Shown here piece after piece: positions 3,488-63,956 of a DNA stretch of 64,000 bases. Made by a program: the position numbers and the translations under genes. The notes below the pieces were generated by a model. It searched no databases. It saw only the letters and a list, made by a program, of their open reading frames with translations, and was not told the origin of the DNA. The number at the start of each line of letters is the position of its first letter. Position 1 is the first letter of the stretch. The DNA is from an uncultured Candidatus Saccharibacteria bacterium (GTDB lineage Bacteria; Patescibacteriota; JAQUNI01). The stretch lies in contig CAZKRD010000002.1 of assembly GCA_964555185.1 (NCBI GenBank), positions 245,268 to 309,267 on the forward strand, read 5' to 3'.

Positions 3488-3500
3488 AATTTTTGTTTAA

Positions 3501-5335: not shown

Positions 5336-6161
5336 AATAGATACGACAAGCTTTGTAAACTCGATGTTCTTTGCTTGTATCTGAAGCTATAATCTTAAAA
5401 TCTTTTTCTAAAACATTCTCAAAATCAACTCGACGCGGAAGGATATAGATACAGCGCTTTGGGATGTAGATGTGATCAGTGATCTCTGATGCCTCTTCTA
5501 GGGAAAGTTCAATCTCTTTTTCCCAAGCCTGCGCCATCAATTCAAAAACCGAAAGCCAATAAGGCCCGTGTTTTTCTTCTTGATAAATATCTGTATTAAA
5601 CATTAAAGCATAAAGAAAATACCATTTCTCAAAATGATTTTTAAAACCCTTGCGGTATTTATCTAAAAAGTCTTTAAGAGTTGTCTTATCCTGAATCTCT
5701 CTTAAGACAATATTTGTAATCAAATACCCGGGACTCTTAAGGTGTCTTTTGATATTAGCGCTAAATTCTCGATGACGGTTAAAGGGAATATTACAATAAA
5801 TATGATCACCGCAAACAATGTCGAATTTCTCTTTTGCTCTAAATTTTAACCAATCACTATAAATAATCTTCTCTTTAGGATTTTTCTTTTTAACAAGTTT
5901 ATTCATTGCCCTAACCATTTCAGGATTAAGATCAACCATTGTTACTTCTAGATTGTATTTGGCAAATAAATCACGCAGTTCTGGGGTTGCCCCGAATAAC
6001 AAAATCTTTGGCTTTTTGCCGATTCTCTTTCTCACTTCTTTTAAAAATTTTTCATAAACTAAAATCTCACCAGGCGATGGCCGCATTGGCGGTTTTAAAT
6101 CTCCCCAAACTTGGGAAAGACTTTTCCAAGAATATGTCTGATTTTGGATTTTATTAGGCAT
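5319..6161 (-). CDS. Class I SAM-MTase-fold protein, paralog 4 of 6
   Basis: 'ILLFGATPELRDLF', 'VTMVDLN', 'FDIVCGDHI', 'RHLKSPGYLI'. N-terminal 'WKSLSQVWGDLKPPMRPSPGEILVYEKF'. Overlaps paralog 3 start. Confidence 0.55.
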   Translation of the reverse strand: MPNKIQNQTYSWKSLSQVWGDLKPPMRPSPGEILVYEKFLKEVRKRIGKKPKILLFGATPELRDLFAKYNLEVTMVDLNPEMVRAMNKLVKKKNPKEKIIYSDWLKFRAKEKFDIVCGDHIYCNIPFNRHREFSANIKRHLKSPGYLITNIVLREIQDKTTLKDFLDKYRKGFKNHFEKWYFLYALMFNTDIYQEEKHGPYWLSVFELMAQAWEKEIELSLEEASEITDHIYIPKRCIYILPRRVDFENVLEKDFKIIASDTSKEHRVYKACRIYFAENN

Positions 6162-6232
6162 ATTTTCAAACCCACTATTGTAAATTATATCAAAATTTTA
6201 GCTAAAAAGAAAGGATATTTCAAAACCATTTA

Positions 6233-7048
6233 TCAAATCTTCTTCAAAAAATAAACCGGTTCGAATTTGCAGTATTCAAACTTTTGAACATAAGAAATAG
6301 AAACAATCTTGAAATGTGTTTTAGCTAATTTCTCAAATTCATCTTTTGGAGGCAGAGTTGAAACGCCGGCAAAATGTTTGTATTTATTCAAAATTCCAAA
6401 ATCAGACCTTATTTCCCCATCTTCTTTTAATTTTTTTACTTTTTCTAAAAATCTCTGCCAAGAAAACTGATATGTTTTAGAATCCCACATGGTTGCTGCG
6501 GCTTGCACTAAAAAATCCTGTTCTGTTTTAATTTTCCCCATCTTGTATTTTTCAAAAACATTGACTATATCTTCACAAACCCAGCTATCTGGAAATTTAA
6601 CAATTAAGTGGGTAGAAACAAAACCATTGGGTTTTAATAGACTATGTAATTTTTTTAACATCTTACCCCAATCCCGCCAGAAAAGTACAGTCAAGACATC
6701 ATCACCAGCAATTAAATCATAATAATTATCTGGCAAGGGTAATTCTCGCCAGTCAGCACGTACAAATGTCTCCTTCTCTATATCTCCTCGAACGAGCAAG
6801 CTCATTGCTTGGTACATCAAAAGAGAATGATCAACACAAGTTACCTCAAATTTGTATTTATGAGCCAGTGTGCGTAATTCTGGGGTAGAACCTAAAATCA
6901 AAATTCGCGGATTCTTCCTCCGCGCTATTTTTTTGAAATGTTTTTCATAAATTTCTTCGTGTTCGGGCAACGGCCGCACGGTCGTATCTTTCCATTTTTC
7001 CCAATCTTGGGCAATCTTGCGAATGTTTTTGGTTAAAATATAAGGCAT
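6233..7048 (-). CDS. Class I SAM-MTase-fold protein, paralog 5 of 6
   Basis: 'ILILGSTPELRTLA', 'VTCVDHS', 'YDLIAGDDV', 'SLLKPNGFVS'. C-terminal 'PVYFLKKI'. Confidence 0.55.
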   Translation of the reverse strand: MPYILTKNIRKIAQDWEKWKDTTVRPLPEHEEIYEKHFKKIARRKNPRILILGSTPELRTLAHKYKFEVTCVDHSLLMYQAMSLLVRGDIEKETFVRADWRELPLPDNYYDLIAGDDVLTVLFWRDWGKMLKKLHSLLKPNGFVSTHLIVKFPDSWVCEDIVNVFEKYKMGKIKTEQDFLVQAAATMWDSKTYQFSWQRFLEKVKKLKEDGEIRSDFGILNKYKHFAGVSTLPPKDEFEKLAKTHFKIVSISYVQKFEYCKFEPVYFLKKI

Positions 7049-7060
7049 ATATTATAAACT

Positions 7061-7190
7061 GTCATTGCGAGGAGCGACCCCGAGCCCGCCGAGGGGAAGC
7101 GACGAAGCAATCTCCTTGAAAAAGGTATTGCTGCTCTACGAGATTGCTTTGGTCACCTCACCCCGAAGGGCAGGCTCCCTCGCAATGACA
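7061..7190. repeat. MITE-like palindromic element (family A), terminal inverted repeats GTCATTGCGAGGAGCGAC ... CCTCGCAATGACA with an internal hairpin (GCAATCTC/GAGATTGC)
   Basis: Seen directly in the sequence. Related copies lie at 22768-22921 and 34044-34149. GC-rich in an AT-rich background. Sits between paralogs 6 and 5. Confidence 0.7.
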
Positions 7191-7346
7191 ACGGGATTGT
7201 TATTTTCTCTCCAATTGCATAACATAACCCCAGTTATAACAGGTGGAGTTACGCGGTTCAGGTGACTTATCTTTAACTCTAAAATATTTTAAAAGCATCC
7301 ATTTGTCTTTTTCCCAATTAAAATAGGTCCATTCTTTATCCATCGG

Positions 7347-8039
7347 CTAAATCTCTTTTGCTTTTTTATAGGCCCTTTTTACTCTCGGATCTTTAATGTA
7401 TTTTTTTAATTCCGCGAAAAAAAGATTAGTGCCGATTTTGTAATTCTTGTTTAAATTCGAATAAAAAGTGCCCCTAGTCCAAAAATCTTCAAAATTCTGC
7501 ACGCTGTAACCTTTTTCTAAATACTCTTTTAAAAGCACATTAAAATTATGGGTTTTGCTCTCTGGGAAGTCAGCATAGAAGCGGGTCAGAAAATAGCCAT
7601 TAAACTTTAAGAGTCTATGTGCTTTTTTAAAAAACACAGGCTGGTTAGCTCTTAATACATTTTCCAAGATATAGTCGCCAAACAGAACATCATATTCGTT
7701 TTCTCTTAAAGGTGCGGAGAGCCAATTGCTTTTCACCCAAATCTCTTTATCTGTTTCCTTTTTATTGTGCATTAATTCTGTCATCGCGATAATCATCTCT
7801 AAATTAGAATCAACAATTGTTACTTTTACTTTAGGATAGCACGCCAGAAGATCACGGATTTCTGGTGTCGCGCCAAAGACCAAAGCCTTAGGACTCTTTT
7901 TCCCTTTAATTGCTTCTTTTAAATATTTTTCATAATCCTGAATGTTTTTGCGGCAAGGCCTGGTGGGATGCTTTAGTTTTTTCCACATCTTAGCCCATTC
8001 CTTCCATGGTTCAATGAATTTTTCTCGCTTTTTGGACAT
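7347..8039 (-). CDS. Class I SAM-MTase-fold protein, paralog 6 of 6 (shorter; lacks the C-terminal P-x-Y-x-LKK segment)
   Basis: 'ALVFGATPEIRDLL', 'VTIVDSN', 'YDVLFGDYI', 'RLLKFNGYFL'. N-terminal 'EPWKEWAKMWKKLKHPTRP...YEKY'. 230 aa versus 271-327 aa for the others. Confidence 0.5.
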   Translation of the reverse strand: MSKKREKFIEPWKEWAKMWKKLKHPTRPCRKNIQDYEKYLKEAIKGKKSPKALVFGATPEIRDLLACYPKVKVTIVDSNLEMIIAMTELMHNKKETDKEIWVKSNWLSAPLRENEYDVLFGDYILENVLRANQPVFFKKAHRLLKFNGYFLTRFYADFPESKTHNFNVLLKEYLEKGYSVQNFEDFWTRGTFYSNLNKNYKIGTNLFFAELKKYIKDPRVKRAYKKAKEI

Positions 8040-8511
8040 AAATTCACTTTAAGAACATATTTTTAATGAATTGTACTAATTAAAACCCTCATTTGATGGG
8101 AATTAAAGCTTTATGCCTTTTATCTTGGCCTATGTGTACAAATACTCTATAGTCGGAGAAACTTGGAAGAAGTCCTGTGAAGTCACAACGCACTTGTCAT
8201 TCACGTGAAAAAGCGGGAATCAGAGTATTCTTGCTCTAAAACCTGGATCTCCGATCAAGTCGGAGATGACAAATGACCTACGTTTGCTTATGAAGATGAC
8301 AACTAAAGGCTATGGAACCAACAAGCACAATAACTAGCACAATCCATATTTTTATAATAAAATTGTATCAAATTTGAGCGATAAAATAAAGGTTTGGTAA
8401 AAATTTATCAGGATATAAAAGTTGACGAAACAATGAAAAAGAGTTATCTTTATAATGAAATGCTGGATAACACGAAACGAAAACACAACCAAAGAGAGGA
8501 GATGACGATAA

Positions 8512-8751
8512 ATGAAGGAAGAGTCACAAGCCGTTTTGTTTATTATGTTGTTTATCTCGGGGATATTTTATCTTGTCGCGATGACCTTCCTTTATCCCAT
8601 TGAAGTCATCCAAGAAAAAAGGATGAGGCACTGCTACAAAAAGAGGCACAGTAAACAGGAGTCTGGTTGGGAAGACTGCTGTAATAAATCTTGCCTCGGA
8701 GCCTGCAACGCTCTCCGGGAAAGGGATTGTCTGGCAAATTTAGAACAGTGA
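8512..8751 (+). CDS. Small membrane protein with a Cys-rich C-terminal tail (6 Cys in ~36 aa)
   Basis: RBS GAGAGGAG ~10 nt upstream of the ATG. One predicted TM helix 'VLFIMLFISGIFYLVAMTFLY'. C-terminus 'HCYKKRHSKQESGWEDCCNKSCLGACNALRERDC'. A rho-independent terminator-like hairpin lies downstream (~8838-8862). Confidence 0.4.
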   Translation: MKEESQAVLFIMLFISGIFYLVAMTFLYPIEVIQEKRMRHCYKKRHSKQESGWEDCCNKSCLGACNALRERDCLANLEQ

Positions 8752-8932
8752 GCAAGAAATGGCGATAAAGAAGCGCTGGGCTCTCTGGAGTTCTATTATC
8801 GCTATGGATAAAGCTTCCCCCACAAGAGGTTCGAAAAACCTCTTTTTTTATATCAAGTATTTTTAACATTGAAAATAGAAAATAAAAAAAAGTTGCAGGG
8901 ATTGCTACAACTAAAGTAGAAATATATTCCAC

Positions 8933-9196
8933 TTAAGATTCCTCTTGTATCTCAAATTTTGTCCCTTGCACACAGTAACTAATTAATCTTTGCCCTCTTG
9001 GAACCCCTTTGCGGCGTATTTTTATCCGAAGAGACAAATAGCCAGGAATATATCGAAATTCTTCTATTCTCACTGGAGGTTCAGCGGGATCAGAACAAAA
9101 AGGTATAACCACTACCAAACAATTCTTTAACGCTTTATTTAATCTGTCTGCCTCCGCTTGAGTAATCTCTTTTATCCCAAAAACCTGATTAGACAT
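8933..9196 (-). CDS. Hypothetical 87-aa protein
   Basis: Strong RBS AAGGAGGA 5 nt before the ATG. No recognisable motif. Lies between the Cys-rich peptide gene and the subtilase. Confidence 0.45.
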   Translation of the reverse strand: MSNQVFGIKEITQAEADRLNKALKNCLVVVIPFCSDPAEPPVRIEEFRYIPGYLSLRIKIRRKGVPRGQRLISYCVQGTKFEIQEES

Positions 9197-9349
9197 ATGA
9201 TCCTCCTTGCGTGTTGTTTTTCTTGAAAAAATTAGACAAAATAAAAAAGATCAAATTAAAAAACTAAATTAATATCTTTTAATCTTGGTTGAAAATCCAA
9301 CTTTGTCAAATTTAACCCTCAAGATGAAAAGTTAATATAATAACAGTTC

Positions 9350-10688: not shown

Positions 10689-10872
10689 ATGAAAGGCAAA
10701 GTGTGCCTGCACTCTGAGGCTTTGTCCTCCTTCGCCCTGACGAGCTTCAGAGGACACCCCTTCTTTCTTAGTCAGACAAATTATTGTTTGTTTTTAGAGT
10801 GCTGTGCACTCCGAAGCTCCAAACAAAGTGAGGAGCGAAGATGTGTTTGCACACCGAAGCCTTGGCGAAGGT
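10689..10872. repeat. GC-rich imperfect long palindrome (family B motifs CCGAAGCCTTGGCG / GAGCTTC(A/G)GAGG) abutting the 3' end of tRNA-Ala
   Basis: Left and right arms are imperfect reverse complements. Shares CGCCAAGGCTTCGG-type cores with 20811-20887, 32713-32850 and 55706-55762. Confidence 0.55.
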
Positions 10873-10873
10873 G

Positions 10874-10946
10874 TGGACCTGGGGAGAATCGAACTCCCTA
10901 CCTCAGCAATGCGAATGCTGCGCTCTACCAGATGAGCTACAGGCCC
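10874..10946 (-). tRNA. tRNA-Ala (anticodon CGC)
   Basis: Manual fold: acceptor GGGCCUG with a G3:U70 pair (Ala identity), D-arm GCUC/GAGC, anticodon loop UUCGCAU, T-arm GGGAG-UUCGAUU-CUCCC, discriminator A. No encoded CCA. Confidence 0.85.
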
Positions 10947-20810: not shown

Positions 20811-20887
20811 TCTTCCGCCTACGCTCACGAGCTTCGGCGGACAGGTCCGCTCTCGCGCCAAGGCTTCGGTGGACAGACAAACAGTGG
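20811..20887. repeat. GC-rich repeat (family B) with direct repeats GAGCTTCGGCGGACAG / AGGCTTCGGTGGACAG
   Basis: Seen in the sequence. Shares CGCCAAGGCTTCGG with 10855-10872. Confidence 0.5.
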
Positions 20888-45354: not shown

Positions 45355-45399
45355 AGTTTAAATATAAATAATCAACATTCAACTTCTCATTTCCCATCT

Positions 45400-46386
45400 T
45401 CATGATCTGATCTCCTTTTCCAGCCAAGGAATATTCTGGGTTTTTCTTTTCCAAAAAATATCCTCCCAAATGTAATGGAACGCTAATTTTTCCCAACCGG
45501 GATAGTTCGATCTAAAAAATTTAAGAATTTTCTGAACGGATACTAATTTTTTATCAAATAATAGTCGCGACATTATTTTCTGCTCCCAAGGCGGAATTGT
45601 TTCTAAAGAACCGCAATGGTAAAAATCTTCAAACAAAAGATACTCAACAGAGGCAGGGCCAATGCCGTAGAGTTTTAACGCCTCTTTTTTAAGTTCACCC
45701 CTCCCCATTTTTCGCATCTGAAACTCATTAATTTCTCCACAAACAAACTGTTCACTAATTCTTTTCAAAAATTTAGCCCGATAACCTAACTTTAAATCTC
45801 TTAAAACCTGCTCGGCTGTCTTAGCTATAATTTGCGGACTCCAAAAAGAAAATAAAATTTTATGGTCAAATTCAACTTGCTGGCCGAATTTATTGAAAAG
45901 ATTCTCAAGCATTTGAGAAGTACGGCGGACAGTGGCATTTTGCAAAACAATATAAATGATCAAGGTCTCATAGAACGAATTAGCAGCCACCGGCTTCATC
46001 CCTTTCCATTTTTTAAACAAAGGCCCTAACACTTTATCGTTTTTGAACTTCTTACTGAATTCCGCGATATCGGATTTAATATTAAACCGCCACTCTATCT
46101 CGGGAATAATTTCTTTTTTAATCTCCGGCTTGATTGGTTTTCGAGAATAGACAGTTAATTTTACTTTGGGATTAGCGACCGTGCCCTTGTTTTCTAACTT
46201 CAATCCAAAAATATCATCTTTCCAAAACATCATGATCCAATAGTTATCCTGCTCCCAAACATTATCCGAGGACGGAAAATGCGAGGGCTTATGGATCGTA
46301 GCGTTGAAATTATAAAGCGGTGTTGGTTTTAGCAACACCGAGAACTTTTTATTTAGTTTAATAATCTTACTTTTCATCTTCATCAA
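45400..46386 (-). CDS. HhH-GPD superfamily DNA glycosylase-like protein
   Basis: Helix-hairpin-helix 'LKLYGIGPASVEYLLF' followed by a Gly/Pro/Asp-rich region. Confidence 0.45.
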   Translation of the reverse strand: MMKMKSKIIKLNKKFSVLLKPTPLYNFNATIHKPSHFPSSDNVWEQDNYWIMMFWKDDIFGLKLENKGTVANPKVKLTVYSRKPIKPEIKKEIIPEIEWRFNIKSDIAEFSKKFKNDKVLGPLFKKWKGMKPVAANSFYETLIIYIVLQNATVRRTSQMLENLFNKFGQQVEFDHKILFSFWSPQIIAKTAEQVLRDLKLGYRAKFLKRISEQFVCGEINEFQMRKMGRGELKKEALKLYGIGPASVEYLLFEDFYHCGSLETIPPWEQKIMSRLLFDKKLVSVQKILKFFRSNYPGWEKLAFHYIWEDIFWKRKTQNIPWLEKEIRS

Positions 46387-46499
46387 ATATTTTCACAACT
46401 GGTTTGGATTTTTGAGATTTTATCCTAGACATAAGTTTAGAATCAAAATAAAGTTGGCTCCATTCTCCCTCTTCCAAGACCTGATTTATCTATCTCTCT

Positions 46500-46925
46500 T
46501 TATTTCATCCTATTAAAATTTCCGTTAAGAATCACATCGGTCACGGCTTTTATCTCATCAGTATAAGAAACCTTTTCTGGTATTGGATTTAGAAGAAAAA
46601 CCTTTTTATCCTTGACGTGAGCAAAGCCCATTTCCATTAAAGTATTTCCGCCAATATAATTCTTAATGCCGTCTTTGTCATAATTTAAAACCAAAATAGC
46701 ATTGCTGTCCGCAATCGCTTTGTAATACCACTTGATATAACCTTCTTTTCTTTTGACTTGACCGTGGTCTTCTTTAATTCTCTTCATTAACTCTGGATTT
46801 CTACCAAGGGCTAAATCTTCCATTACAGGACAAATGATCCCCTTATGCCCCATCTTATTTAATTGATCTCTCACTTCAACCATTTCTTTTCTAAATCTTA
46901 CGCTTCCGCAAATTGTTATTTTCAT
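46500..46925 (-). CDS. Nucleoside 2-deoxyribosyltransferase-like protein
   Basis: 'KITICGSVRF' (IYLAGP-like) and 'IGGNTLMEMGFAHVKDKKVFLL' (GT.fE.G.A...gKpv) match NDT-family motifs. Confidence 0.5.
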   Translation of the reverse strand: MKITICGSVRFRKEMVEVRDQLNKMGHKGIICPVMEDLALGRNPELMKRIKEDHGQVKRKEGYIKWYYKAIADSNAILVLNYDKDGIKNYIGGNTLMEMGFAHVKDKKVFLLNPIPEKVSYTDEIKAVTDVILNGNFNRMK

Positions 46926-47074
46926 AGTTTTATTTTTGTTAGATCTAAACTTTATATATTGCTGCGAGGGTGAAACTCTCTCAAACTCTTTATTATCACT
47001 ATACCAAATTTAGTTGATCAATCCAAGGAAAACAAAAAAGAGCCATTTCGCAATGTCATCTACGAAATGGCTGT

Positions 47075-48601
47075 CTAGGACATCTGTCCCAGTGTTTTTT
47101 CTCTTTTGTCTAAATCATCTAAGACTAAAGAAAATCCTCTGAAACTGTCTTCAGGTCTCCAGACGGGATTGCCTGCTATTCTAGGAATCCCATCCATAAT
47201 AAACTGAAACGGCTTGCCTCTCGCCAACTTCCCCCATTCGGCAATCACTCTACTATACAGATTGTTCTGAAATACTCTTTGTCTCAACCCAGGAACGCCT
47301 GCCAATATATGCCTAACGCTATGGTTGATAGAAAAAGCTCTACAGCAAGCGGCCTCGGCCTCTTCTTTAGTCATCATAGATAACTTCCTCACGAAGTGCG
47401 CGGTGTCATAGTTGTTCGGGTCCCAATCTACAATTTCACCATTACGCACCGCTTCATAGAAGTCAACTGTTTCAGGAAAAGGAACAACACGAAATAGAGC
47501 GACCAGATCAAAAAGCTGAGCCATCGCACGCGCCTCTTTGAGTATAGCGGGCGCACATTGGTCGGGGAATCCAACCATCCAGCCAGCATTAACAAGAATG
47601 CTATATCTATGGAACTCATCAACTATTAGGCGATATTGCTCTGGCTTATTGTGCGTTTTTCCCTCATCAGCCAGTCTTTGAGAATCCAATGTCTCAATCC
47701 CCAAAAAGACCTGCCTAACTCCCATTCGAGCAAGCGCAGAAACTTCTTTAATCACATCGGGAGTCGCATCTAGTTGAATGAAAAGATAAAATGTATCGCC
47801 CAGTTTTTCATTCAATCTGATGAGCTGTTCGGATAAGGTCCTATAAATGGGTGAACGCCGAAAATTATCATCCAGCAACATTATGGGCAAACCGACCCGA
47901 TGTGTTTTCTCTATCCATTCTAGAACGCCCTCGGGGTCTCTTGCTCTCGATCTAGTCATCTGACGACCACGCAAAGTAGTCACACAACAAAAAGAACAGT
48001 TGTGAGGACACCCTTCGGAAGTGTCGATGCCGGCAAGCCTATTAAGCGTTAAGCCATAGCCATCAGAAATCACATCTGGCACATCTGGCAGAGGCGCCTC
48101 TCTCAAATCGACATAATTCCTCTGCCAATACAAGATCTTTAGGCTGTTGTTGAGAGCATCTTCAATAATCTTGCCTACAGTTTCCTCGCCCTCTCCGACA
48201 TTAAAAGAAATTCCTTTGTCGCGAAGCAGCTCGTAAGTTTTATAATCCGCCAAAGTAACACCCGCCCCGCCAATCACGACATCCACACTGTCAAGGCGCT
48301 TCAGGTAAACAGCTATATCTATCGCCCTCGGCAGCTCAAAAGTTTTGGCGCTTATCAAAACCAATTTCTTGCCGCAATCGTTGCGTGCGATAATCTTCCT
48401 TAGGTATTCATCGCCATTCTCCGTCCTTTCATTAACACAAGTTATATTCACTTTACATTCTAGCCTTTCAGTTGCCTGAAGCAATAAAGATTTAAGAACT
48501 AAAAACACTGCCGGAGGCATTGATACTCTTCTATACTGCATCAATCTACCATTGTCCTCATAAGAAGACGCGGAAATAATCCAAACCCCCAAATCATTCA
48601 T
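47075..48601 (-). CDS. Cobalamin-binding radical SAM protein
   Basis: 'EGCPHNCSFCCV' CxxxCxxC cluster motif. N-terminal B12-binding-like Rossmann 'VVIGGAGVT'. Confidence 0.7.
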   Translation of the reverse strand: MNDLGVWIISASSYEDNGRLMQYRRVSMPPAVFLVLKSLLLQATERLECKVNITCVNERTENGDEYLRKIIARNDCGKKLVLISAKTFELPRAIDIAVYLKRLDSVDVVIGGAGVTLADYKTYELLRDKGISFNVGEGEETVGKIIEDALNNSLKILYWQRNYVDLREAPLPDVPDVISDGYGLTLNRLAGIDTSEGCPHNCSFCCVTTLRGRQMTRSRARDPEGVLEWIEKTHRVGLPIMLLDDNFRRSPIYRTLSEQLIRLNEKLGDTFYLFIQLDATPDVIKEVSALARMGVRQVFLGIETLDSQRLADEGKTHNKPEQYRLIVDEFHRYSILVNAGWMVGFPDQCAPAILKEARAMAQLFDLVALFRVVPFPETVDFYEAVRNGEIVDWDPNNYDTAHFVRKLSMMTKEEAEAACCRAFSINHSVRHILAGVPGLRQRVFQNNLYSRVIAEWGKLARGKPFQFIMDGIPRIAGNPVWRPEDSFRGFSLVLDDLDKREKTLGQMS

Positions 48602-48650
48602 CGTATCACCTCCATGATAATAGCGAAAATAAAGTACAGAGGAAAAATGG

Positions 48651-48677
48651 GAGAAAAGGTTCCTGACACCTTTTCTC
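48651..48677. repeat. REP-like hairpin (family C) GAGAAAAGGT-tcctgac-ACCTTTTCTC, solo copy
   Basis: Perfect 10-bp stem. The same unit flanks the IS200-like transposase in inverted orientation. Confidence 0.7.
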
Positions 48678-48691
48678 TATTTTGAATAACT

Positions 48692-49408
48692 TTATAGTTG
48701 TATTAGATATTTTATAAGATATTGTAAATAATAAATACCAGTAATTAAAAATACTGAAGCGACTGCGTATCTCATAACTTTTTCAACTTTTTGCACAATT
48801 CGAAAGGCCCGACTTACCTTTTGCATACTGAAAGCAATCAGAAACGAAAAAATAATTACAGGTAATCCTGTGCCAAGAGCAAATAATGGTGGGAGTAATA
48901 AACTTTCAGTTGACTTAAGAACCAAAGGGATCAAAACACCAAAAAACAAAACTCCGCTGTATGGACAGAAAGCCAAAGCAAACAAAACGCCTAAAAGCAA
49001 AGAGCCGATATAACCTTTTGAAGATAGCCATTCTTTTAATTTTTCTATTCTCTCGTTCTTTGATCCTATGTTAATCTTTATAACCCCGAACATCATCAAA
49101 CCGATCACAATTAAAATAGGCCCCAGAATTTTATCACCCCAGCCTTGAAAAATACTTGAAATCTGGAAAGATGATAAGCCAAAATATATTAAAGTGGCTA
49201 AAAGAGTGTAACTGATTCCTCGTCCAATCGTATAAAACAGGCCATTCAGTAATGTGTTTTTAGTAGTTTTAATCTCTTTAGAGATATAAGCTATGGCGGT
49301 GATATTGGTAGCCAAGGGGCAGGGGCTAATGGAAGTTAAAATACCGAGCAAAAAAGCGGTTAAAAGTGGAATATTGTAGTTATCTATTAGAACATTAATG
49401 AAATCCAT
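48692..49408 (-). CDS. CcdA/DsbD_2-like thiol-disulfide membrane transporter
   Basis: 6 TM helices with single Cys in TM1 ('SISPCPLAT') and TM4 ('FCPYSG'). Confidence 0.5.
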   Translation of the reverse strand: MDFINVLIDNYNIPLLTAFLLGILTSISPCPLATNITAIAYISKEIKTTKNTLLNGLFYTIGRGISYTLLATLIYFGLSSFQISSIFQGWGDKILGPILIVIGLMMFGVIKINIGSKNERIEKLKEWLSSKGYIGSLLLGVLFALAFCPYSGVLFFGVLIPLVLKSTESLLLPPLFALGTGLPVIIFSFLIAFSMQKVSRAFRIVQKVEKVMRYAVASVFLITGIYYLQYLIKYLIQL

Positions 49409-49409
49409 A

Positions 49410-49913
49410 TTATTTGCCCAACAACGAATTTAATTTATCTTCTAAATAGATTTTAAATTGGTTCTCGTTCCCTGCTAGCCGCCACACATTTGTATCTTGA
49501 CTAATATTATCTTGGTTGTTTCTGATGGCATTGATAAACAATGAGGAGCCGCTGGCTTTGAATTTTGCGGCCAACTCCCTATTTTCTGGCAATTCAACAT
49601 TTATTTCCTGAAAATCAACAGTTCCATTTTTGATCTCATCAGCGAAGTTATTCTCAATTGTTTCCTTTATATATTTGCCGATTGTCAGGCAGGAAGAACA
49701 CCTCTGTGTTCGGTGAAAATAATATACCTGCAATTTGTCAGCCGCTATATCTGTGTTGGCTATTGGAACATTGCTGTTGTTTTTATTTTGGCTTGCGCTG
49801 ATATCAGCCGTTTGATTGTCGCTTGGTTGTTGGTTTATAAACTTTTTACCGCACCCCACTAATACTAAAACACCAATGATTAGAATAGATATTAATAATG
49901 TTTTTTTGCTCAT
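49410..49913 (-). CDS. Lipoprotein with a CxxC motif (thioredoxin-like?)
   Basis: Lipobox 'LVGCG'. 'QRCSSCLTIGKY'. Confidence 0.4.
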   Translation of the reverse strand: MSKKTLLISILIIGVLVLVGCGKKFINQQPSDNQTADISASQNKNNSNVPIANTDIAADKLQVYYFHRTQRCSSCLTIGKYIKETIENNFADEIKNGTVDFQEINVELPENRELAAKFKASGSSLFINAIRNNQDNISQDTNVWRLAGNENQFKIYLEDKLNSLLGK

Positions 49914-49938
49914 AAGTTTTAATTTTGATTTATATTAT

Positions 49939-51051
49939 TTAAACCAATCTGCCGAAGATCAAACCGGCGATTGTTGAATAAAATATTACTAATAATACGT
50001 AAACAGCTGTTTTTTTATTGCCCAAAACGCGCCTGACTACCAGCATATTAGGCAAGCTCAACGAAGGTCCAGCCAGAAGCAGGGCCAAAGCAGGCCCTTG
50101 GCTCATACCTTTTGCAATTAAAGCCTGAAGTATTGGGATTTCCGTTAAGGTAGAAAAATACATAAAAGCACCAAAGATAGAAGCTACCAAATTGCCTATA
50201 ATAGAGTTTGATCCGACTATCTTTTGAATCAGTTCTTGGGGCAGGAATGGCATAATAAATCCAGCCACAAATACGCCGATAAAAAGAATTGGGAGGAGCA
50301 TTTTGGTAAAAGACCAAGTTTCTTTCATCCATTCCTTATTAGTTTGCTTTTGGAATTTAACAGTAGCAATAACAATCGCCACTAATGAGAGAACCACCAT
50401 TAATACATATTTGAGTATTTGATTGATCTGTAATCCATTAACGACCAAAACACTGACCATAGCCAACATAAATACTAAAATCGTGATTTTACCATACAGC
50501 GGTTGGTCAGATTTCTCGATAATTAACTCTCCGTCTTCTGTTTTTTCTCTAAATATCCCCTGCATACTAAGACCGACTAAAATAGAAAGAAAAATCGCTG
50601 AAACGATTCTAGCCAGTCCAATTTTTACGCCTAAAACTGACATTGTTAGAAATATGGCCGCGATATTTATTGCCGGGCCTGAAAAAAGAAAAGTAACAGC
50701 CGGGCCAAGTCCAGCCCCTCTTTTTCTAATGCCAGCAAACAAGGGTAAAATAGTGCAAGAACAAACCGCCAAAATAGCCCCTGAAACAGAAGCTAAAGAA
50801 TAAGAAATGACTTTTTTAGCTCGTCCGCCCAGATATTTCAAAACAAAATCTTTTTTAATAAAAACAGAAATCGCCCCAGCAATAAAAAACGCAGGCAAGA
50901 GACAGGTTAAAATATGATCTCTGGCATATTCATGAAGCAGTTTAACGCCTGAAAGAATAGCGCCCGTGAATAGAACCGACTGCATAGGCATAAAATAGAA
51001 AAACAAAAATAGCCCAAGTAACAGAATAAAAATTTTAATTTCTTTATTCAT
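49939..51051 (-). CDS. Permease (DUF318/YraQ-like)
   Basis: 8-10 TM helices. Conserved with ArsR/thioredoxin neighbours in many anaerobes (established operon architecture). Confidence 0.5.
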   Translation of the reverse strand: MNKEIKIFILLLGLFLFFYFMPMQSVLFTGAILSGVKLLHEYARDHILTCLLPAFFIAGAISVFIKKDFVLKYLGGRAKKVISYSLASVSGAILAVCSCTILPLFAGIRKRGAGLGPAVTFLFSGPAINIAAIFLTMSVLGVKIGLARIVSAIFLSILVGLSMQGIFREKTEDGELIIEKSDQPLYGKITILVFMLAMVSVLVVNGLQINQILKYVLMVVLSLVAIVIATVKFQKQTNKEWMKETWSFTKMLLPILFIGVFVAGFIMPFLPQELIQKIVGSNSIIGNLVASIFGAFMYFSTLTEIPILQALIAKGMSQGPALALLLAGPSLSLPNMLVVRRVLGNKKTAVYVLLVIFYSTIAGLIFGRLV

Positions 51052-51137
51052 AAAACTACATAATCATCAATAGATATTGATATTATGGTTAAAATTTTAT
51101 CTCTGCCGCAAAAACAGAGATAAAGTATGGTTAACTT

Positions 51138-51371
51138 TTATTTAAGCCAGCCCTTGATTTCTTCCACATCAGGAATTCGACCCGACGCTTTGACTTCTTG
51201 ATCAATCACAATGGCAGGTGTTGACATAACTCCATATTCAGTAATTTTAGCAATGTCATGTTCATGTTCAATTTTAATATCCTTTAAACCAAGTTCTTCG
51301 ACGGCCTTTTTAGCGTTGTTTTCTAATGTCTGACAATTAGGGCAGCCAGAGCCCAAAATTTTGATAATCAT
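51138..51371 (-). CDS. Thioredoxin-fold 'redox-active disulfide protein 2'
   Basis: 'KILGSGCPNCQTL' CxxC. 77 aa. Confidence 0.65.
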   Translation of the reverse strand: MIIKILGSGCPNCQTLENNAKKAVEELGLKDIKIEHEHDIAKITEYGVMSTPAIVIDQEVKASGRIPDVEEIKGWLK

Positions 51372-51375
51372 AGCT

Positions 51376-51681
51376 TTACTTTAAAAACTTGTTTAATAAC
51401 TTTAAATGTTTTTCTACGACCATTTGATTCAACTTATAAAAAATCTTCAAACTTTCTTTTCTTGAAGAAATTAAATCAAAATCTTTCAAGACCTTTAAAT
51501 GATGGGAAACAAGATTCTGTGGAAGTTCCAAATATTGCCATATATCACAAACGCATTTTTCGCCGTTTCTCAAAATACAAATAATTTTTAACCGATTTTG
51601 TTCAGCAATGATTTTTAAAAACTCGGCGGTTTTTAACAATTCATCAGCGAACTTCTTATTTTTACAACATTTTGGCTTCAT
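51376..51681 (-). CDS. ArsR/SmtB-family metalloregulator
   Basis: 'CVCDIWQYLELPQNLVSHHLKVLKDFDLI' HTH with an upstream Cys pair. Confidence 0.7.
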   Translation of the reverse strand: MKPKCCKNKKFADELLKTAEFLKIIAEQNRLKIICILRNGEKCVCDIWQYLELPQNLVSHHLKVLKDFDLISSRKESLKIFYKLNQMVVEKHLKLLNKFLK

Positions 51682-51757
51682 ATTATTTCATCAATTATGA
51701 TTAGTATAGTTTATATTGATATAATATAAAATTATTAAAAGATTATCAAGAGGCTTA

Positions 51758-51787
51758 GAGAAAAAGGTGTCAGGAACCTTTTCTGGG
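51758..51787. repeat. REP-like hairpin (family C), inverted orientation, at the 3' flank of the transposase
   Basis: AGAAAAAGGT-gtcagga-ACCTTTTCT. Overlaps the tnpA stop codon. Confidence 0.65.
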
Positions 51788-52444
51788 CCTACCCCGCTGT
51801 CTTAGGGTTGTTTCAAGACCAAACTTTTTGACCGTTTCATTCATCCAATGGTCGTCGCCATAAGGACGGCTTTTTGAGATTGACGTCCTAATGCATTCCA
51901 ACTCCTTTCCGACTAGAGAATCATTCACTTGCTTCCAATAATCATACGGAAGTTCAATTGGCCAGGGAGATAGAAGTTCTTTTTGTTTATTGTCCCCATA
52001 CTCTCTTCTCCAAAGACTAGACCACTTCCAGTCTTCCGCCCTTTGGACTAGTTTAGCACGTAAGGTATTGCTTTCAATATAACGGCAAAGTTGTAAGAAA
52101 TAATTATCTTTCTGAATTAGAAATGATTTATACCTGCCTTGATATAGATGACCAGTGCCCATTGAACGATAAGAAGCATGCCAGCGTTGAGTGTGGGTAA
52201 GCGTTAACCATTGTATAAACCTCGTCATATCGCCATCATTTTTAGGGCATAAACAAAAATGCCAATGATTAGGCATTATTTGATAGGAAAATATTTGTAT
52301 TGGATAATGATCTTTTGCTTCTTCTAGGATCGTTTCAAAAACTTGATAATCATTCTCTTTCTCAAAGAGTACCATACGGGCATTGGCACGATTTAAGACG
52401 TGATAAATCTCATTGCCTATGTTTATACGTGACACTCTTCCCAT
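51770..52444 (-). mobile_element. tnpA: IS200/IS605-family Y1 (HuH) transposase, REP-associated (RAYT-like)
   Basis: 'YHVLNRAN' N-terminal motif. HuH 'MPNHWHFCL'. Catalytic Tyr 'GHLYQGRYKS'. Flanked by inverted family-C hairpins. Confidence 0.75.
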
Positions 52445-52462
52445 ACGAGTATTATATCACAA

Positions 52463-52498
52463 TAAAAGGTTCCTGACACCTTTTCTCCCACCTTTTCT
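52463..52498. repeat. REP-like hairpin (family C) at the 5' flank of the transposase, plus a CCTTTTCTCC reiteration
   Basis: AAAAGGT-tcctgac-ACCTTTTCTC, then CCACCTTTTCTCCCCC. Confidence 0.65.
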
Positions 52499-52529
52499 CC
52501 CCCTTATTTCGCTTTAAATAGTTAAGGAA

Positions 52530-52745
52530 TTATTCAATTTCGGTTTCGATATCTTTTTTAATCTCTTCAAACTCATTTTCAATCTTTTTTAACCTATCTT
52601 TGCTTTGTTTGATTAGTAGAGCAGCTTTTTTGATTTTCACTAAACCATCTTCAACATCTAATTCTTGCTGGTTTTCAAACCAATTTGATATTTCTGCCAA
52701 TTCTTTTAAAAGAGGTTTAAGATTTGTTTTTTTCATATTTTTCAA
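52530..52745 (-). CDS. xseB: Exodeoxyribonuclease VII small subunit
   Basis: 71-aa helical protein ('LKELAEISNWFENQQELDVEDGLVKIKKAALLIKQ'). Overlaps the 3' end of xseA. Confidence 0.6.
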   Translation of the reverse strand: MKNMKKTNLKPLLKELAEISNWFENQQELDVEDGLVKIKKAALLIKQSKDRLKKIENEFEEIKKDIETEIE

Positions 52746-53970
52746 TTATTTTTGAATTTATTTTTCCGTCCTTTAATTGCAAATTAACTATTTCATTAAT
52801 TTTAACTTGTTTAACACTTTTTATTACACCCTTTTGCCCCCGCATTATACAATAACCCAGAGAGAAATTCTTTTGGGGGTCGTTGGCTTTAATTGTTTTT
52901 TCGATAAAAACCAACCGCTGTTTGATATCCAACAATCCTTCTTTAAATCTTTTTAAGACTGTATCTCTTCCTTGCTCTATCTCTTTTTTCTTGTCTTTTA
53001 AATACTGGTGTAATTGTTCTAAATTCTTTTTTAATTCAGATTCAAATGCATAAAAAGAAGCAAAGATTTTATTCAAATAAGAGGCCATACTCACAAATCT
53101 TTGGGAAAACTCTTTATTTTTTTTCTGCAATATTCCTTGAAAAGAATTAATAATCGTTCTTTCTTGTCTTTCTATACTCAAGGAGGCCTTTTCCCAGTTA
53201 GAAGAAACTAATTTAGCCGCAGCCGTAGGTGTGGAGCAGGTAGCATCACTAGCCAAAGAAACCAGAGGAACATCTCTTTCATGCCCAATAGCTGCTATAA
53301 CTGGAAAGGGTAAACTGGTCACCTTCCTAACAATGCTTTCGTTATTGAAAGCCTGCAAGCTTTCCAATGATCCTCCCCCTCTAGTAAGAACTAATAAATC
53401 AATATCTTTTTTCTCAAAACTTTTAATTGCTGAAAGAATATCTTTCACAGCCTCCATGCCTTCAACTCTAGCATCTATAAACTGAATTTTAAAGCCAAAC
53501 TTTCCTAGGTTGGCGCGGAAATCTCCAATAGCCGCGCCTGACTTTGAAGTGATTAGCCCTATTTTTTGAGAATATATTGGAAGGGGTTTCTTTTTTTCAA
53601 ATATACCCTCCTTCCGCAAGGATTCTTTCAGTTTGAGATACGCTTTTCTTAATTCTCCTTCTCCTTGTAAAGAAACGCTCTCTGCTTTAAAGCTAAATCT
53701 GCCCTGTGGTTTATAAATATTCCCTACTCCTAATAGTACTACTTTCATGCCTTTTTCCAATTTAACCCCTGAAATACTGTAGTTATACTTCCAAATGATA
53801 CAGTCCAAAACACTTTCCTCAGCGTCCTTAATTGTGAAGTAAACATGACCACTAGTTGGAATATTTACTTGGGTAACTTCCCCAGTGACTTTCACTTTAA
53901 AACGATCTAAGGCTGTATTTACAGTCCCGATGTATTCAGTAACAGTGAATATTTTTTCAGGATTTTCCAT
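52717..53970 (-). CDS. xseA: Exodeoxyribonuclease VII large subunit
   Basis: N-terminal OB-fold 'FTVTEYIGTVNTALDRF...VKVTGEVTQVNIPTSGHVYFTIKD'. Length 417 aa. Confidence 0.75.
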   Translation of the reverse strand: MENPEKIFTVTEYIGTVNTALDRFKVKVTGEVTQVNIPTSGHVYFTIKDAEESVLDCIIWKYNYSISGVKLEKGMKVVLLGVGNIYKPQGRFSFKAESVSLQGEGELRKAYLKLKESLRKEGIFEKKKPLPIYSQKIGLITSKSGAAIGDFRANLGKFGFKIQFIDARVEGMEAVKDILSAIKSFEKKDIDLLVLTRGGGSLESLQAFNNESIVRKVTSLPFPVIAAIGHERDVPLVSLASDATCSTPTAAAKLVSSNWEKASLSIERQERTIINSFQGILQKKNKEFSQRFVSMASYLNKIFASFYAFESELKKNLEQLHQYLKDKKKEIEQGRDTVLKRFKEGLLDIKQRLVFIEKTIKANDPQKNFSLGYCIMRGQKGVIKSVKQVKINEIVNLQLKDGKINSKIIEKYEKNKS

Positions 53971-54031
53971 ATTTCAGTTTTCCTGGCGAGTTTTTAACGA
54001 GTTTATGACGCGTCACGGTCGCCCTTGAGTG

Positions 54032-54102
54032 CTGCCGGGCCAGGGATCGAACCTGGATCAGAGGAGTCAAAGTCCTCGGTGTTACCATTACACCACCCGG
54101 CA
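54032..54102 (-). tRNA. tRNA-Gln (anticodon TTG)
   Basis: Manual fold: U1:A72 acceptor UGCCGGG/CCCGGCA (typical of bacterial tRNA-Gln), D-arm GUGU-AAUGGUA-ACAC, anticodon loop CUUUGAC, T-loop UUCGAUC, discriminator G. Confidence 0.8.
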
Positions 54103-62546: not shown

Positions 62547-63956
62547 GTGTGTTATACTAAAATGACTCAAAAAATAAATCTACAAATGAAAAATCGTATG
62601 GCAGATAATAAAAATCAAAAAATCAGCGGCCGCGTTCCGCCACAAAATCTGGAAGCGGAAAAATCAGTCTTGGGAGCGATTATGTTGGATAAAGACGCTT
62701 TAATCAAAATTGCCGACCGTCTGGGCGCCCGCGATTTCTATAGCGAAAAGCACAAAGAGATTTATGAATCCTGCCTCGAGCTTTATGAAGAACGAGAACC
62801 GATTGATGTTTTGAGTCTTTCCAATAAACTAGAGAACAAAAAGCTTACTGAAAAGTTGGGCGGTTCAAGTTATTTGACCAATCTTGTTAATGCCGTGCCT
62901 AGTGCGGCAAATGTCCTGCATTACGCGAAAATTGTAAGAGACAAAGCTACCTTGCGCCGTTTGATCCAGGCTGGCCAAAAAATTACAGAAGCGGGCTACC
63001 GCGAAGAAGAGGAAGACCTTGAAAAGATGATTGATCAAGCAGAGCAAAAATTGTTCGCAGTTTCCCAAAAATATTTAAAACAGAACTTTATCCCAATCCA
63101 AGACGTCCTAATCGAAGCCTTTGACCGAATTGACGAGTTACACAAAGACAAAGGCAAACTGCGAGGAATCCCGACTGGTTTTGCTGATCTTGACAACATT
63201 TTGGCTGGACTGCAAAGATCAGACCTGGTTATTTTAGCCTCCCGACCCTCTATGGGCAAGACCTCTTTAGCGCTTGATATTGTCCGTCAAGTAGCGACCC
63301 AAAGCAAGGTGCCGGTTGGACTCTTTAGCCTCGAAATGGGTAAAGAACAGCTCGTTGATCGTCTGCTTTGCGCTCAGGCTAATGTCGATCTTTGGAAAAT
63401 GCGTACTGGCAAAATCGGCGAAAGTGAATTCCCCAAAATCGGCGAAGCGATGGGAATATTAGCCGAAGCACCGATTTTTATTGACGATTCCGCAACCAGC
63501 AATATTATGGAAATGCGCACCAAAGCGCGACGGTTACAAGCTGAACACAAAATCGGACTTTTGATTGTTGATTATTTACAACTGATGGAAGGCCGCACAA
63601 CCGACAACCGCGTCCAAGAGGTTTCTGAAATCTCGCGTAATTTAAAGGCGCTCGCGAGAGAACTCGATATCCCCGTACTCGCTCTTTCCCAGCTGTCGCG
63701 CGCGGTTGAATCCCGCTCGCCCGCTATTCCTCAGCTTTCAGATCTACGCGAATCTGGATCGATCGAGCAGGACGCGGACGTGGTGATGTTTATCTATCGG
63801 GAAGTAATGTATAAGCGGGAAACCGATCGCGCGCATATCGCGGACATCTTCATTAAAAAACACCGCAATGGCCCGACCGGCCAAATTGAACTCTATTTTG
63901 ATGAAAACCGCGCCTCTTTTCGAAATCTGGATAGAACCCATGCCAAAAAAGGTTAA
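62547..63956 (+). CDS. dnaB: Replicative DNA helicase DnaB
   Basis: 'PPQNLEAEKSVLGAIM' N-terminal motif. Walker A 'ASRPSMGKTSLALDI'. 'IDYLQLM' and 'LSQLSRAVE' motifs. The exact start among several ATGs is uncertain. Confidence 0.9.
   Translation: MCYTKMTQKINLQMKNRMADNKNQKISGRVPPQNLEAEKSVLGAIMLDKDALIKIADRLGARDFYSEKHKEIYESCLELYEEREPIDVLSLSNKLENKKLTEKLGGSSYLTNLVNAVPSAANVLHYAKIVRDKATLRRLIQAGQKITEAGYREEEEDLEKMIDQAEQKLFAVSQKYLKQNFIPIQDVLIEAFDRIDELHKDKGKLRGIPTGFADLDNILAGLQRSDLVILASRPSMGKTSLALDIVRQVATQSKVPVGLFSLEMGKEQLVDRLLCAQANVDLWKMRTGKIGESEFPKIGEAMGILAEAPIFIDDSATSNIMEMRTKARRLQAEHKIGLLIVDYLQLMEGRTTDNRVQEVSEISRNLKALARELDIPVLALSQLSRAVESRSPAIPQLSDLRESGSIEQDADVVMFIYREVMYKRETDRAHIADIFIKKHRNGPTGQIELYFDENRASFRNLDRTHAKKG

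Follow-up and report, generated by a model that had tools for sequence, protein, structure and literature searches.

A probable TIRtron, with a tyrosine-transposase gene between two inverted copies of a conserved hairpin, in a Patescibacteria contig

A 64,000-nt stretch of contig CAZKRD010000002.1, from an uncultured Candidatus Saccharibacteria bacterium, was analysed and is called the window here. It was found that positions 51758-52501 of the window hold a single tyrosine-transposase gene, tnpA, placed between two inverted copies of a short hairpin, the whole cassette measuring about 730 nt from hairpin to hairpin. Very probably this is a complete TIRtron, whose gene belongs to the TIRYT group of proteins resembling the REP-associated tyrosine transposases (RAYTs; REP, repetitive extragenic palindrome). 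TIRYTs and TIRtrons have been described as RAYT-like genes with terminal inverted repeats (TIRs) in place of GTAG-tagged REPs (Di Nocera, De Gregorio, Rocco 2013, BMC Genomics 14:522, PMC3733652). The cassette is an unusually clean and minimal new TIRtron in a Patescibacteria-like host with a small genome, and the group itself was already known.

A preliminary description of the window had reported a Y1 transposase gene between inverted hairpins and a third copy of the hairpin about 3 kb off, and this was borne out. Exactly three copies of the 19-nt core AAAGGTTCCTGACACCTTT lie in the window, at 48655-48673 (+), 51763-51781 (-) and 52465-52483 (+), against 0.02 copies expected from shuffled sequences, none of which reached three. 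The cassette ends are two inverted copies of a 21-25-nt imperfect palindrome, RRAAAAGGT-TCCTGAC-ACCTTTTYY, with a 7-bp stem and an asymmetric 7-nt loop. The downstream (3′) end, at 51758-51784 (-), reads AGAAAAGGTTCCTGACACCTTTTTCTC on the tnpA strand. The upstream (5′) end, inverted relative to the downstream one, lies at 52461-52487 (+) and consists of AATAAAAGGT, the loop TCCTGAC and ACCTTTTCTC. The third copy is a solo hairpin at 48651-48677 (+), about 3.1 kb from the 3′ hairpin of the cassette at 51758, in which GAGAAAAGGT and ACCTTTTCTC form a perfect 10-bp stem around the 7-nt loop TCCTGAC. The 10-bp stem that had been ascribed to all three hairpins is thus right for the solo copy; both cassette hairpins have a perfect 7-bp stem (AAAAGGT/ACCTTTT), followed by a mismatch in one and a 1-nt bulge in the other. 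Likewise, the solo hairpin had been called identical, which holds over 23-24 nt and not beyond. A 27-mer match is exact at 48651-48677 and has two mismatches at 52461-52487. The solo hairpin is a stray single copy of the cassette end. The idea that it is the remnant of a second tnpA 3′ end was rejected, as no such remnant is recognisable: aligned locally with the 3′ end of tnpA, its left flank scored below the shuffled mean. In Rfam, no family matched any of the three hairpins even at E<=10 (47.5-53.5 kb searched), and at gathering thresholds the whole window gave three tRNAs and nothing else.

The tnpA gene (51770-52444, - strand, 224 aa) and its flanking hairpins are interlocked. The stop codon is the TGA of the loop TCCTGAC in the downstream hairpin (TCA at 51770-51772 on the + strand), so this hairpin overlaps the gene and encodes the final K-G-S and the stop. 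At the other end, a tnpA promoter is predicted at 52451-52479 (-), with a -35-like GTGTCA (52479-52474), a 17-nt spacer and a TG-extended TATAAT (52456-52451). It is the top promoter-like site of the region (10/12 plus TG), and its -35 box lies inside the loop of the upstream hairpin. Since only 6 nt separate the predicted -10 box from the ATG at 52444, the tnpA mRNA is probably leaderless, judging from the sequence. By eye, four related loci (L129, L130, L139, and L140) also have a TATAAT-like box 6 nt before the ATG. The fixed order of hairpin, promoter, tnpA, and stop codon inside the second hairpin recurs in about 90 related loci, and in 61 of 71 the TGA that ends the gene is supplied by the loop.

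TnpA is assigned to the HUH/Y1 superfamily by its HuH motif, a single tyrosine on the next helix and the RRM (RNA recognition motif)-like fold of its model; its catalysis is predicted. The Pfam family Y1_Tnp (PF01797) scores 59.9 bits, and the top-scoring family is the NCBIfam family REP_Tyr_transpos (NF047646) with 64.6 bits. A comparison of RAYT and IS200 profiles had been proposed as a check, and the outcome favours the former, since the NCBIfam transpos_IS200 (NF033573) gives 13.5 bits against a cut-off of 55. By sequence, the closest match in the PDB is E. coli TnpA_REP (4er8, E 2e-3), with the ISDra2 TnpA at E 0.3. An AlphaFold2 (AF2) model of TnpA (pLDDT 89.7) was compared with known structures by Foldseek, and 4er8 again came first (E 2.4e-8, TM-score 0.71 on the target), followed by the ISDra2 and IS608 transposases (2xma, 2vjv). 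An N-terminal Y1 core (aa 13-126) is followed by a C-terminal extension (aa ~143-214), which is a small helical domain in this model. The protein is longer than a typical IS200 TnpA (224 versus ~130-155 aa), as was stated before.

The HuH motif is H60-W61-H62 in MPNHWH (codons at 52259-52267, - strand), as the preliminary description had it, and is invariant in the two alignments of the family, A1 and A2. The tyrosine is a different matter. The segment LYQGRYKS, to which it had been assigned, aligns with the 'W motif' of RAYTs (IWQPRF; the WQ/WE region) and not with the tyrosine motif. The inferred catalytic residue is Y122 in CRYIESNT (codon at 52079-52081, - strand), which aligns with Y115 of E. 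coli TnpA_REP (4er8) and is invariant in A1 and A2. A W-W-S-S motif follows Y122, and the consensus of the TnpA family is CRYVERNP (Y---NP) with W-WSS. The C-terminal R217-G218-R219-P220 (codons at 51785-51796, - strand) form an AT-hook-like core, also invariant in A1 and A2, directly before the hairpin-encoded K-G-S and stop. Most of the TIRYTs in the list of Di Nocera 2013 (PMC3733652) likewise have a GRP motif close to the C-terminus.

Do the hairpin and the transposase occur together in other genomes? A word-indexed search gave 6198 TnpA homologues at E<=1e-3, the best 120 of which are almost all exactly 224 aa, and the family comprises at least 549 clusters at 50% identity with E<=1e-30 (among 1.84 billion representatives). 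The exact 19-mer AAAGGTTCCTGACACCTTT was found in at least 120 stretches from more than 10 phylum-level groups by record title, with one genome taken per GTDB species. The groups listed are Planctomycetota, Alpha-, Beta-, Gamma-, and Deltaproteobacteria, Nitrospirota, NC10, NPL-UPA2, Acidobacteriota, Verrucomicrobia, Bacteroidetes, Zixibacteria, several Patescibacteria, and one metagenome-assembled genome (MAG) labelled Woesearchaeota. Since an exact scan finds exact copies only, an independent test was made on 80 metagenome loci, for the choice of which only the similarity of the protein to TnpA counted (47-75% identity). There, an end with at most three mismatches to the 19-mer core was found upstream in 44 of 75 cases and downstream in 40 of 79. 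Most of the other loci inspected have a variant palindrome at the same two positions, for example AAATGGGGTCAGCCACCATTT, AAAAGGGGTCGGGAGTCTTTT, or AAGGGGGTCAGGTACCCTTT, and several of these variants contain GGGGTCAG, which fits GGGGWSAS. Five positions are invariant across 131 distinct ends, namely G13, G14, G16, T17, and C18 of ...GG(T/G)GTC.... Of 59 loci, 48 have an identical central 13-mer at both ends (after shuffling, 15.2 on average and at most 24), and the nearest protein neighbour shares the hairpin class in 69 of 87 cases versus 24% by chance. In these sequence comparisons the hairpin variant tracks the TnpA lineage, as expected of a cognate pair of enzyme and site. In the hairpin class of the window, the 13-mer stays the same at an average protein identity of 57%.

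A few of these loci have an arrangement of their own. In L189 (metagenome contig Ga0163146_10000267), three different TnpA homologues (51%, 43%, and 38% identity to TnpA of the window) lie within 6.7 kb, each beside its own palindrome variant. A Nealsonbacteria MAG (L082, 1529-2263) has the exact core with no tnpA near, and two direct copies 716 nt apart bracket ORFs (open reading frames) of 62 and 65 aa. In the MAG labelled Woesearchaeota by record title only (L091, 1243-2933), the exact core is also without a tnpA near, and two copies bracket unrelated genes.

The copied unit runs from hairpin to hairpin. A Pirellulaceae MAG (L046) has two copies of the cassette 1.56 kb apart, which are 95.2% identical over exactly 756 nt. 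The similarity begins at the outer edge of one hairpin and stops about 3 nt past the T run of the other; beyond it, the two copies have unrelated flanks, and no target duplication is present. The cassette of the window and a copy from NPL-UPA2 (75% aa identity), which sits beside a tRNA gene, are also alike only between the hairpins. Because the similarity of the copies ends within about 3 nt of the inverted hairpins, these ends are terminal, not subterminal. Many TnpA homologues sit on contigs of 0.75-1.5 kb. Three Logan contigs (L002, L003, and L004, from the source samples SRR8482198, SRR8482191, and SRR8482192) all stop inside the 3′ hairpin of the cassette (...ACCTTTT), which suggests that the junction of the cassette with the ArsR operon beside it is repeated or polymorphic in those samples. 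Repeats and polymorphic junctions have this effect on an assembler, and TIRtron ends can break assemblies.

The polarity of the ends is fixed. When tnpA is placed on the top strand, the upstream end of related loci always has the loop GTCAGGA and the downstream end always TCCTGAC. Among 200 loci, neighbouring hairpins 600-900 nt apart have the order (-,+) 34 times, and pairs less than 150 nt apart have it 53 times, with (+,-) once. Thus, the short doublets, which share the polarity of the cassette ends, are cassettes without the gene, comparable to MITEs (miniature inverted-repeat transposable elements) or to REPINs (paired REPs). Doublets lacking tnpA recur at several loci in planctomycete MAGs; one Planctomycetales MAG has them at six loci with a shared spacer of ~30 nt, and another locus (L179) has five doublets within 6.4 kb.

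The hairpins also bear a polar trace. At both cassette ends, the TGAC-ACC side faces outwards, and in 51 of 273 hairpins the arm on this side is reiterated within 50 nt, versus 3 of 202 for the other arm; shuffled flanks gave 2 and 1. Where in the loop or arm a reiterated unit starts varies (CCTGACACC..., TGACACC..., ACC..., CC...), and it stops a few bases past the T run. Lineages with variant hairpins also reiterate the outer arm, sometimes in nested form (L165, L140, L152, L162, and L200). The upstream hairpin of the window (52461-52487) carries one extra arm, since ACCTTTTCTCCC at 52478-52489 is repeated at 52490-52501, giving a tandem outer arm at 52478-52501 (+) on the side away from tnpA. 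As the reiteration is symmetric about the element and does not follow the direction of replication, it was read as a by-product of the enzyme, and I suspect that the reiterations are scars of a cut-and-rejoin step of the transposase. Polar reiteration of the outer arm was also noticed at L008, L037, L049, L082, L091, L102, L105, and L106.

A working scheme can be drawn by analogy with the biochemistry of IS608/ISDra2 and E. coli TnpA_REP. TnpA would bind an end that has folded into a hairpin while the DNA is transiently single-stranded, or that is extruded as a cruciform, and would read the orientation from the asymmetric loop. The C-terminal RGRP tail probably contacts the A4/T4 tract of the stem in the minor groove, by analogy with AT-hooks. 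Using H60/H62 and Y122, the enzyme would cut and rejoin one strand at the outer edges of both hairpins, and this could move or copy the cassette or the doublets lacking tnpA, occasionally leaving solo ends. Since the -35 box lies inside the upstream hairpin, binding of TnpA should repress tnpA. The solo hairpin after the DsbD_2-family gene probably acts as the 3′ stem-loop of an operon, either as a terminator or as an RNA stabiliser, as REPs do.

Several points weigh against the interpretation as a TIRtron with hairpin ends. There is one cassette with one solo end only in the 81.5 kb of the source contig that were covered. The two flanking hairpins fold weakly as single-stranded DNA, at about -4 kcal/mol. 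The 64.6 bits of TnpA fall short of the curated 80-bit cut-off of REP_Tyr_transpos, as do the scores of three relatives (70.8-75.6 bits). TnpA of the window has T, not P, in the Y---NP motif (YIESNT). No Pfam helix-turn-helix (HTH) family was found in the C-terminal part, since Y1_Tnp was the only hit at E<=1 in the window protein and 12 family members; the C-terminal extension of subclass 2.1 of the TnpA_Y1 proteins is said to resemble the HTH profiles Bac_DnaA_C, HTH_23, and HTH_28 (Quentin 2018, PMC6006769). The cleavage sites, the choice of strand and the single-stranded substrate are inferred by analogy with IS608/ISDra2 and E. coli TnpA_REP. Finally, the support for pairing is modest: 77.7% of the cells are paired versus 73.0 +/- 0.7% after shuffling, and the covariation score is 0.199 versus 0.142 +/- 0.010, but sliding by one column gives an equal score because of the A and T runs.

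Is the end then recognised as a hairpin or as a duplex site? The clearest exchanges of pairs lie next to GG/CC, where A-T occurs 61 times, T-A 24, G-C 4, and C-G 2, with 39 unpaired. In the ends that occur as pairs, the outer arms are complementary to each other over 5.22 bp beyond GG/CC versus 3.30 +/- 0.11 after shuffling, and the inner arms over 4.12 versus 2.81 +/- 0.12 bp. The solo copies give a weaker signal for their own stems (3.85 versus 3.18 +/- 0.10 bp). An extension of each hairpin's own stem by covarying outer pairs was considered and ruled out by count, as it amounts to 1.31 versus 1.13 +/- 0.055 bp beyond the 19-mer. The position matrix of 241 distinct hairpin instances is RRAAAAGGTTCCTGACACCTTTTYY; its conservation stops at RRAAAA...TTTTYY, with at most 0.1 bit further out.

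A classical REPtron, in which a domesticated single-copy RAYT maintains flanking REPs that are dispersed as high-copy REPINs in the same genome, is the best of the alternatives but improbable. The profile and structure searches fit it, as do the inverted ends, the solo hairpins away from any tnpA and the REPIN-like doublets at several loci elsewhere (the six loci of the Planctomycetales MAG and the five doublets of L179). However, there is neither a GT[AG]G foot nor any other conserved foot in the position matrix, and the score lies below the 80-bit equivalog cut-off. The hairpins in the 81.5 kb examined of the 355-kb source contig number three only, all within 3.85 kb; on this evidence the system would be at very low copy number here and not a proliferating REP population. 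The gene sits inside one doublet, like an insertion sequence (IS) between its TIRs, and is duplicated together with its ends (L046). In addition, the palindrome core is shared across phyla, whereas REPs are species-specific. The architecture of a RAYT with cognate REPs, as first suggested for the window, is therefore right in kind, given the profile, 4er8 and the inverted ends, but without a GTAG foot it is not a classical REPtron.

The E. coli system is nevertheless the nearest with a known structure. REPtrons and E. coli TnpA_REP are reportedly the subject of Nunvar 2010, Ton-Hoang 2012, and Messing 2012 (PDB 4er8). Like TnpA of the window, E. coli TnpA_REP (RayT/YafM) has the HuH and tyrosine catalytic residues and a W-x-(F/W)-S-(S/T) after the tyrosine helix, and in the REP/BIME (paired REP) arrangement inverted palindromes flank the gene, with solo and paired palindromes elsewhere in the genomes. 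It differs in being 165 aa long and in using a GTAG guide tetranucleotide; the 224-aa protein of the window has an extra helical domain and an RGRP tail, and no GTAG is present.

Very unlikely is the view that the hairpins are host terminators or operators unrelated to transposition, with the Y1 gene merely lying between two of them. The solo hairpin does look like a terminator. It lies 14 nt 3′ of the stop codon of the DsbD_2-family gene and 50 nt 5′ of a radical-SAM gene, both on the - strand, it scores terminator-like on both strands, and as single-stranded DNA it folds with a dG of -9.3 (+) or -10.1 (-) kcal/mol (z -3.2 and -4.1, DNA fold). The upstream hairpin of the cassette overlaps the predicted tnpA promoter. 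Furthermore, 66% of the hairpin cores lie inside long stop-free stretches versus 91% of random positions, in a crude test. This intergenic preference, read from sequence, is only suggestive, since high-GC genomes are almost wholly stop-free. Against host elements, the 19-mer accompanies TnpA homologues in many phylum-level groups of visibly differing G+C, hairpin and TnpA lineage co-vary, both ends of a locus match, duplication spans the unit from one hairpin to the other, and the stems are A/T-rich and weak for terminators. The co-variation and the duplication refute this view as the sole explanation; a secondary role of the solo hairpin as a terminator is compatible with the TIRtron interpretation.

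A canonical IS200/IS605 element, moving by peel-and-paste with subterminal left and right hairpins on one strand, had also been suggested for the window. This is extremely unlikely. Elements such as IS608 and ISDra2 (subclass 1.1) do share the HUH/Y1 fold and the Y1_Tnp domain with the cassette, and like it they are compact, with hairpins at both ends and no target-site duplication. However, their transposases have about 130-155 aa and the tyrosine motif Y---Q, while TnpA of the window has 224 aa with a C-terminal domain, Y---N(P/T) with W-WSS (YIESNT in the window itself), and a transpos_IS200 score far below its cut-off. Their hairpins are subterminal and on the same strand, with cleavage set back from them, in contrast to the inverted, terminal copies of one sequence at the cassette ends, where similarity stops within about 3 nt of the hairpins. 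No tnpB, often a partner in such elements, was found nearby, the neighbours of the cassette being xseB/xseA and the ArsR operon. The matrix of 241 instances has no TTAC-like flank, so the IS200-type site for which a check had been advised beside the hairpins was not seen. It had also been said that the REP-like reading would fail if the hairpin occurred at only these three sites and TnpA grouped with canonical IS200 elements; the first holds in the 81.5 kb, and the second does not. From its sequence, TnpA is not a canonical IS200 transposase, and its home is the TIRYT/TIRtron group.

Barely credible is a composite element, in which the solo hairpin (48651) and the tnpA 3′ hairpin (51758) would mobilise the 3.1-kb ArsR-to-DsbD_2 operon as cargo: the two make up a perfect 23-nt inverted repeat, lie 3087 nt apart and have precisely this operon between them, and L038 has a third hairpin 2.1 kb downstream of its cassette in the same relative orientation, but the pair in the window is oriented (+,-), opposite to every cassette and to 53 of 54 close doublets, no second hairpin-bounded copy of the operon was seen, and a close relative lacks a far larger segment (45,373-54,015) that ends at no hairpin.

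The placement of TnpA among the TIRYTs was assessed with the published sequences of Additional file 5 of Di Nocera 2013 (PMC3733652). The nearest entries are 'rba 2408', 'dau 2153', and 'gbm 2474'; by BLASTP, TnpA shares 51% identity with 'rba 2408' (Rhodopirellula baltica RB2408) over 222 aa (E 2e-86), while the identity with 'dau 2153' is 43% (E 2e-65). The shared motifs are MPNHWH, WLTLTHTQR, GHLYQGRYKSF, CRYVERN, W-WSS, PFG...W, and RGRPRK. As in TIRYTs, the inverted repeats are terminal and at a fixed distance from the gene, and the 3′ repeat overlaps the gene end. The published motif GGGGWSAS, which applies to some TIRs only, is matched at 7 of 8 positions by GGTGTCAG of the window, and sister lineages of the TnpA family have GGGGTCAG, which fits it, or GGGGTCGG. 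A difference is the host, since the window is Patescibacteria-like and this group is missing from the complete-genome surveys of 2013 and 2018. In the TIRYT/TnpA_Y1 literature searched, I did not find a TIR described as a palindrome with a 7-bp stem, with the stop codon in its loop and the promoter in the upstream copy; nor was a description found there of the polar reiteration of the outer arm or of the near-invariance of the end across phyla.

Most TIRYTs have been equated with subclass 2.1 of TnpA_Y1, which is Group 1 of the RAYTs of Bertels 2017 (Quentin 2018, PMC6006769; PMC5581495). TnpA of the window resembles this subclass in its family consensus YVERNP, which fits Y---NP, in the 'SS' motif, in its length of ~230 aa with a C-terminal extension (the median of 2.1 is ~238 aa), and in its low copy number with occasional duplicates and plasmid copies. 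It differs in its motifs, with NHWH where the subclass has NHVH/NH[YF]H, YQ where the subclass has W[EQ]/FQ, and YIESNT in the window protein itself, and may therefore lie within 2.1 or beside it. According to Quentin, Siguier, Chandler, and Fichant (2018, PMC6006769), there is no REP-like secondary structure beside subclass 2.1 genes; unlike in this account, a conserved palindrome bounds tnpA of the window. A 'transposase' on a P. aeruginosa plasmid, 31% identical to TnpA over its full length, has the exact 2.1 motifs (NHVH, WE, YIELNP, and WSS) and TIRs of ~31 bp that contain GGGGACAG, and its coding sequence extends into the 3′ TIR. The plasmid collection held distant TnpA homologues only (25-37% identity).

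TIRYT / Group-1 RAYT is the largest RAYT-like group, and the literature searched holds comparative genomics only. The present comparative data define a recognition element and its co-variation with lineage, the copied unit, derivatives without tnpA that keep a fixed polarity, and a layout suited to autoregulation. It is possible, though doubtful, that the family is a distinct subfamily of autonomous hairpin-ended Y1 elements with a cut-and-rejoin mechanism of its own, spread over at least 549 clusters and many phyla including Patescibacteria and perhaps DPANN. If so, a 21-nt end would have stayed near-invariant while the transposase diverged to ~50%, the reiterated arms would be scars at or inside the hairpin, and the cut-and-rejoin step would be one that has been described neither for IS200/IS605 nor for REP systems. 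With its C-terminal AT-hook, the 224-aa enzyme would then be a compact recombinase of single-stranded DNA with a fixed site, and TIRYTs would be live transposons instead of domesticated genes. The system lends itself to direct tests, which need one 27-mer oligonucleotide and the 224-aa protein. For annotation, short identical hairpins beside genes of ~224 aa called 'IS200-like' should be taken as TIRtron ends, not as REPs or IS200 ends.

The surroundings of the cassette are variable. The G+C content of the window is 39.4%, and the named homologues of its CysS belong to Patescibacteria (Moranbacteria and Portnoybacteria, 53-57% identity). A close relative, Ga0366832_1000267 (L208; 85-92% nucleotide identity), is collinear with the window up to the tRNA-Gln gene (54,031-54,102) and again from SurE. 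It lacks positions 45,373-54,015 and has there instead about 0.6 kb with a 123-aa ORF and no hairpin. Thus, the cassette, the solo hairpin and the ArsR operon lie in an 8.6-kb variable island, the ends of which are not hairpins. The operon between the solo hairpin and the 3′ hairpin comprises the genes for ArsR, Thioredoxin_3, an ArsP_1 permease, a 167-aa protein, and DsbD_2. The island as a whole carries an HhH-GPD gene, a 141-aa gene, a radical-SAM gene, the ArsR / Trx / ArsP / DsbD_2 operon, the tnpA cassette, xseB, and xseA; the last two are odd content for a variable island.

Other observations concern regions outside the island. The DnaB of the window (62547-63956) has ~456-469 aa and no intein, and that of L208 (1-1997) has 872 aa with an intein and a LAGLIDADG domain. 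At ~3500-9300 of the window (4331-8018 in L206), four tandem paralogous genes of the Methyltransf_11/25 families are followed by GSP_synth, GCS2, and ATP-grasp genes, and direct repeats of the methyltransferase genes lie at 6035, 6928, and 7913, with spacings of 893 and 985 nt. A 38-nt inverted repeat (10844-10881 and 20842-20879, 79% complementary) has its first arm abutting or overlapping the 3′ end of a tRNA-Ala gene (10873-10946, - strand), and may be a duplication of a tRNA fragment as left by integrative elements.

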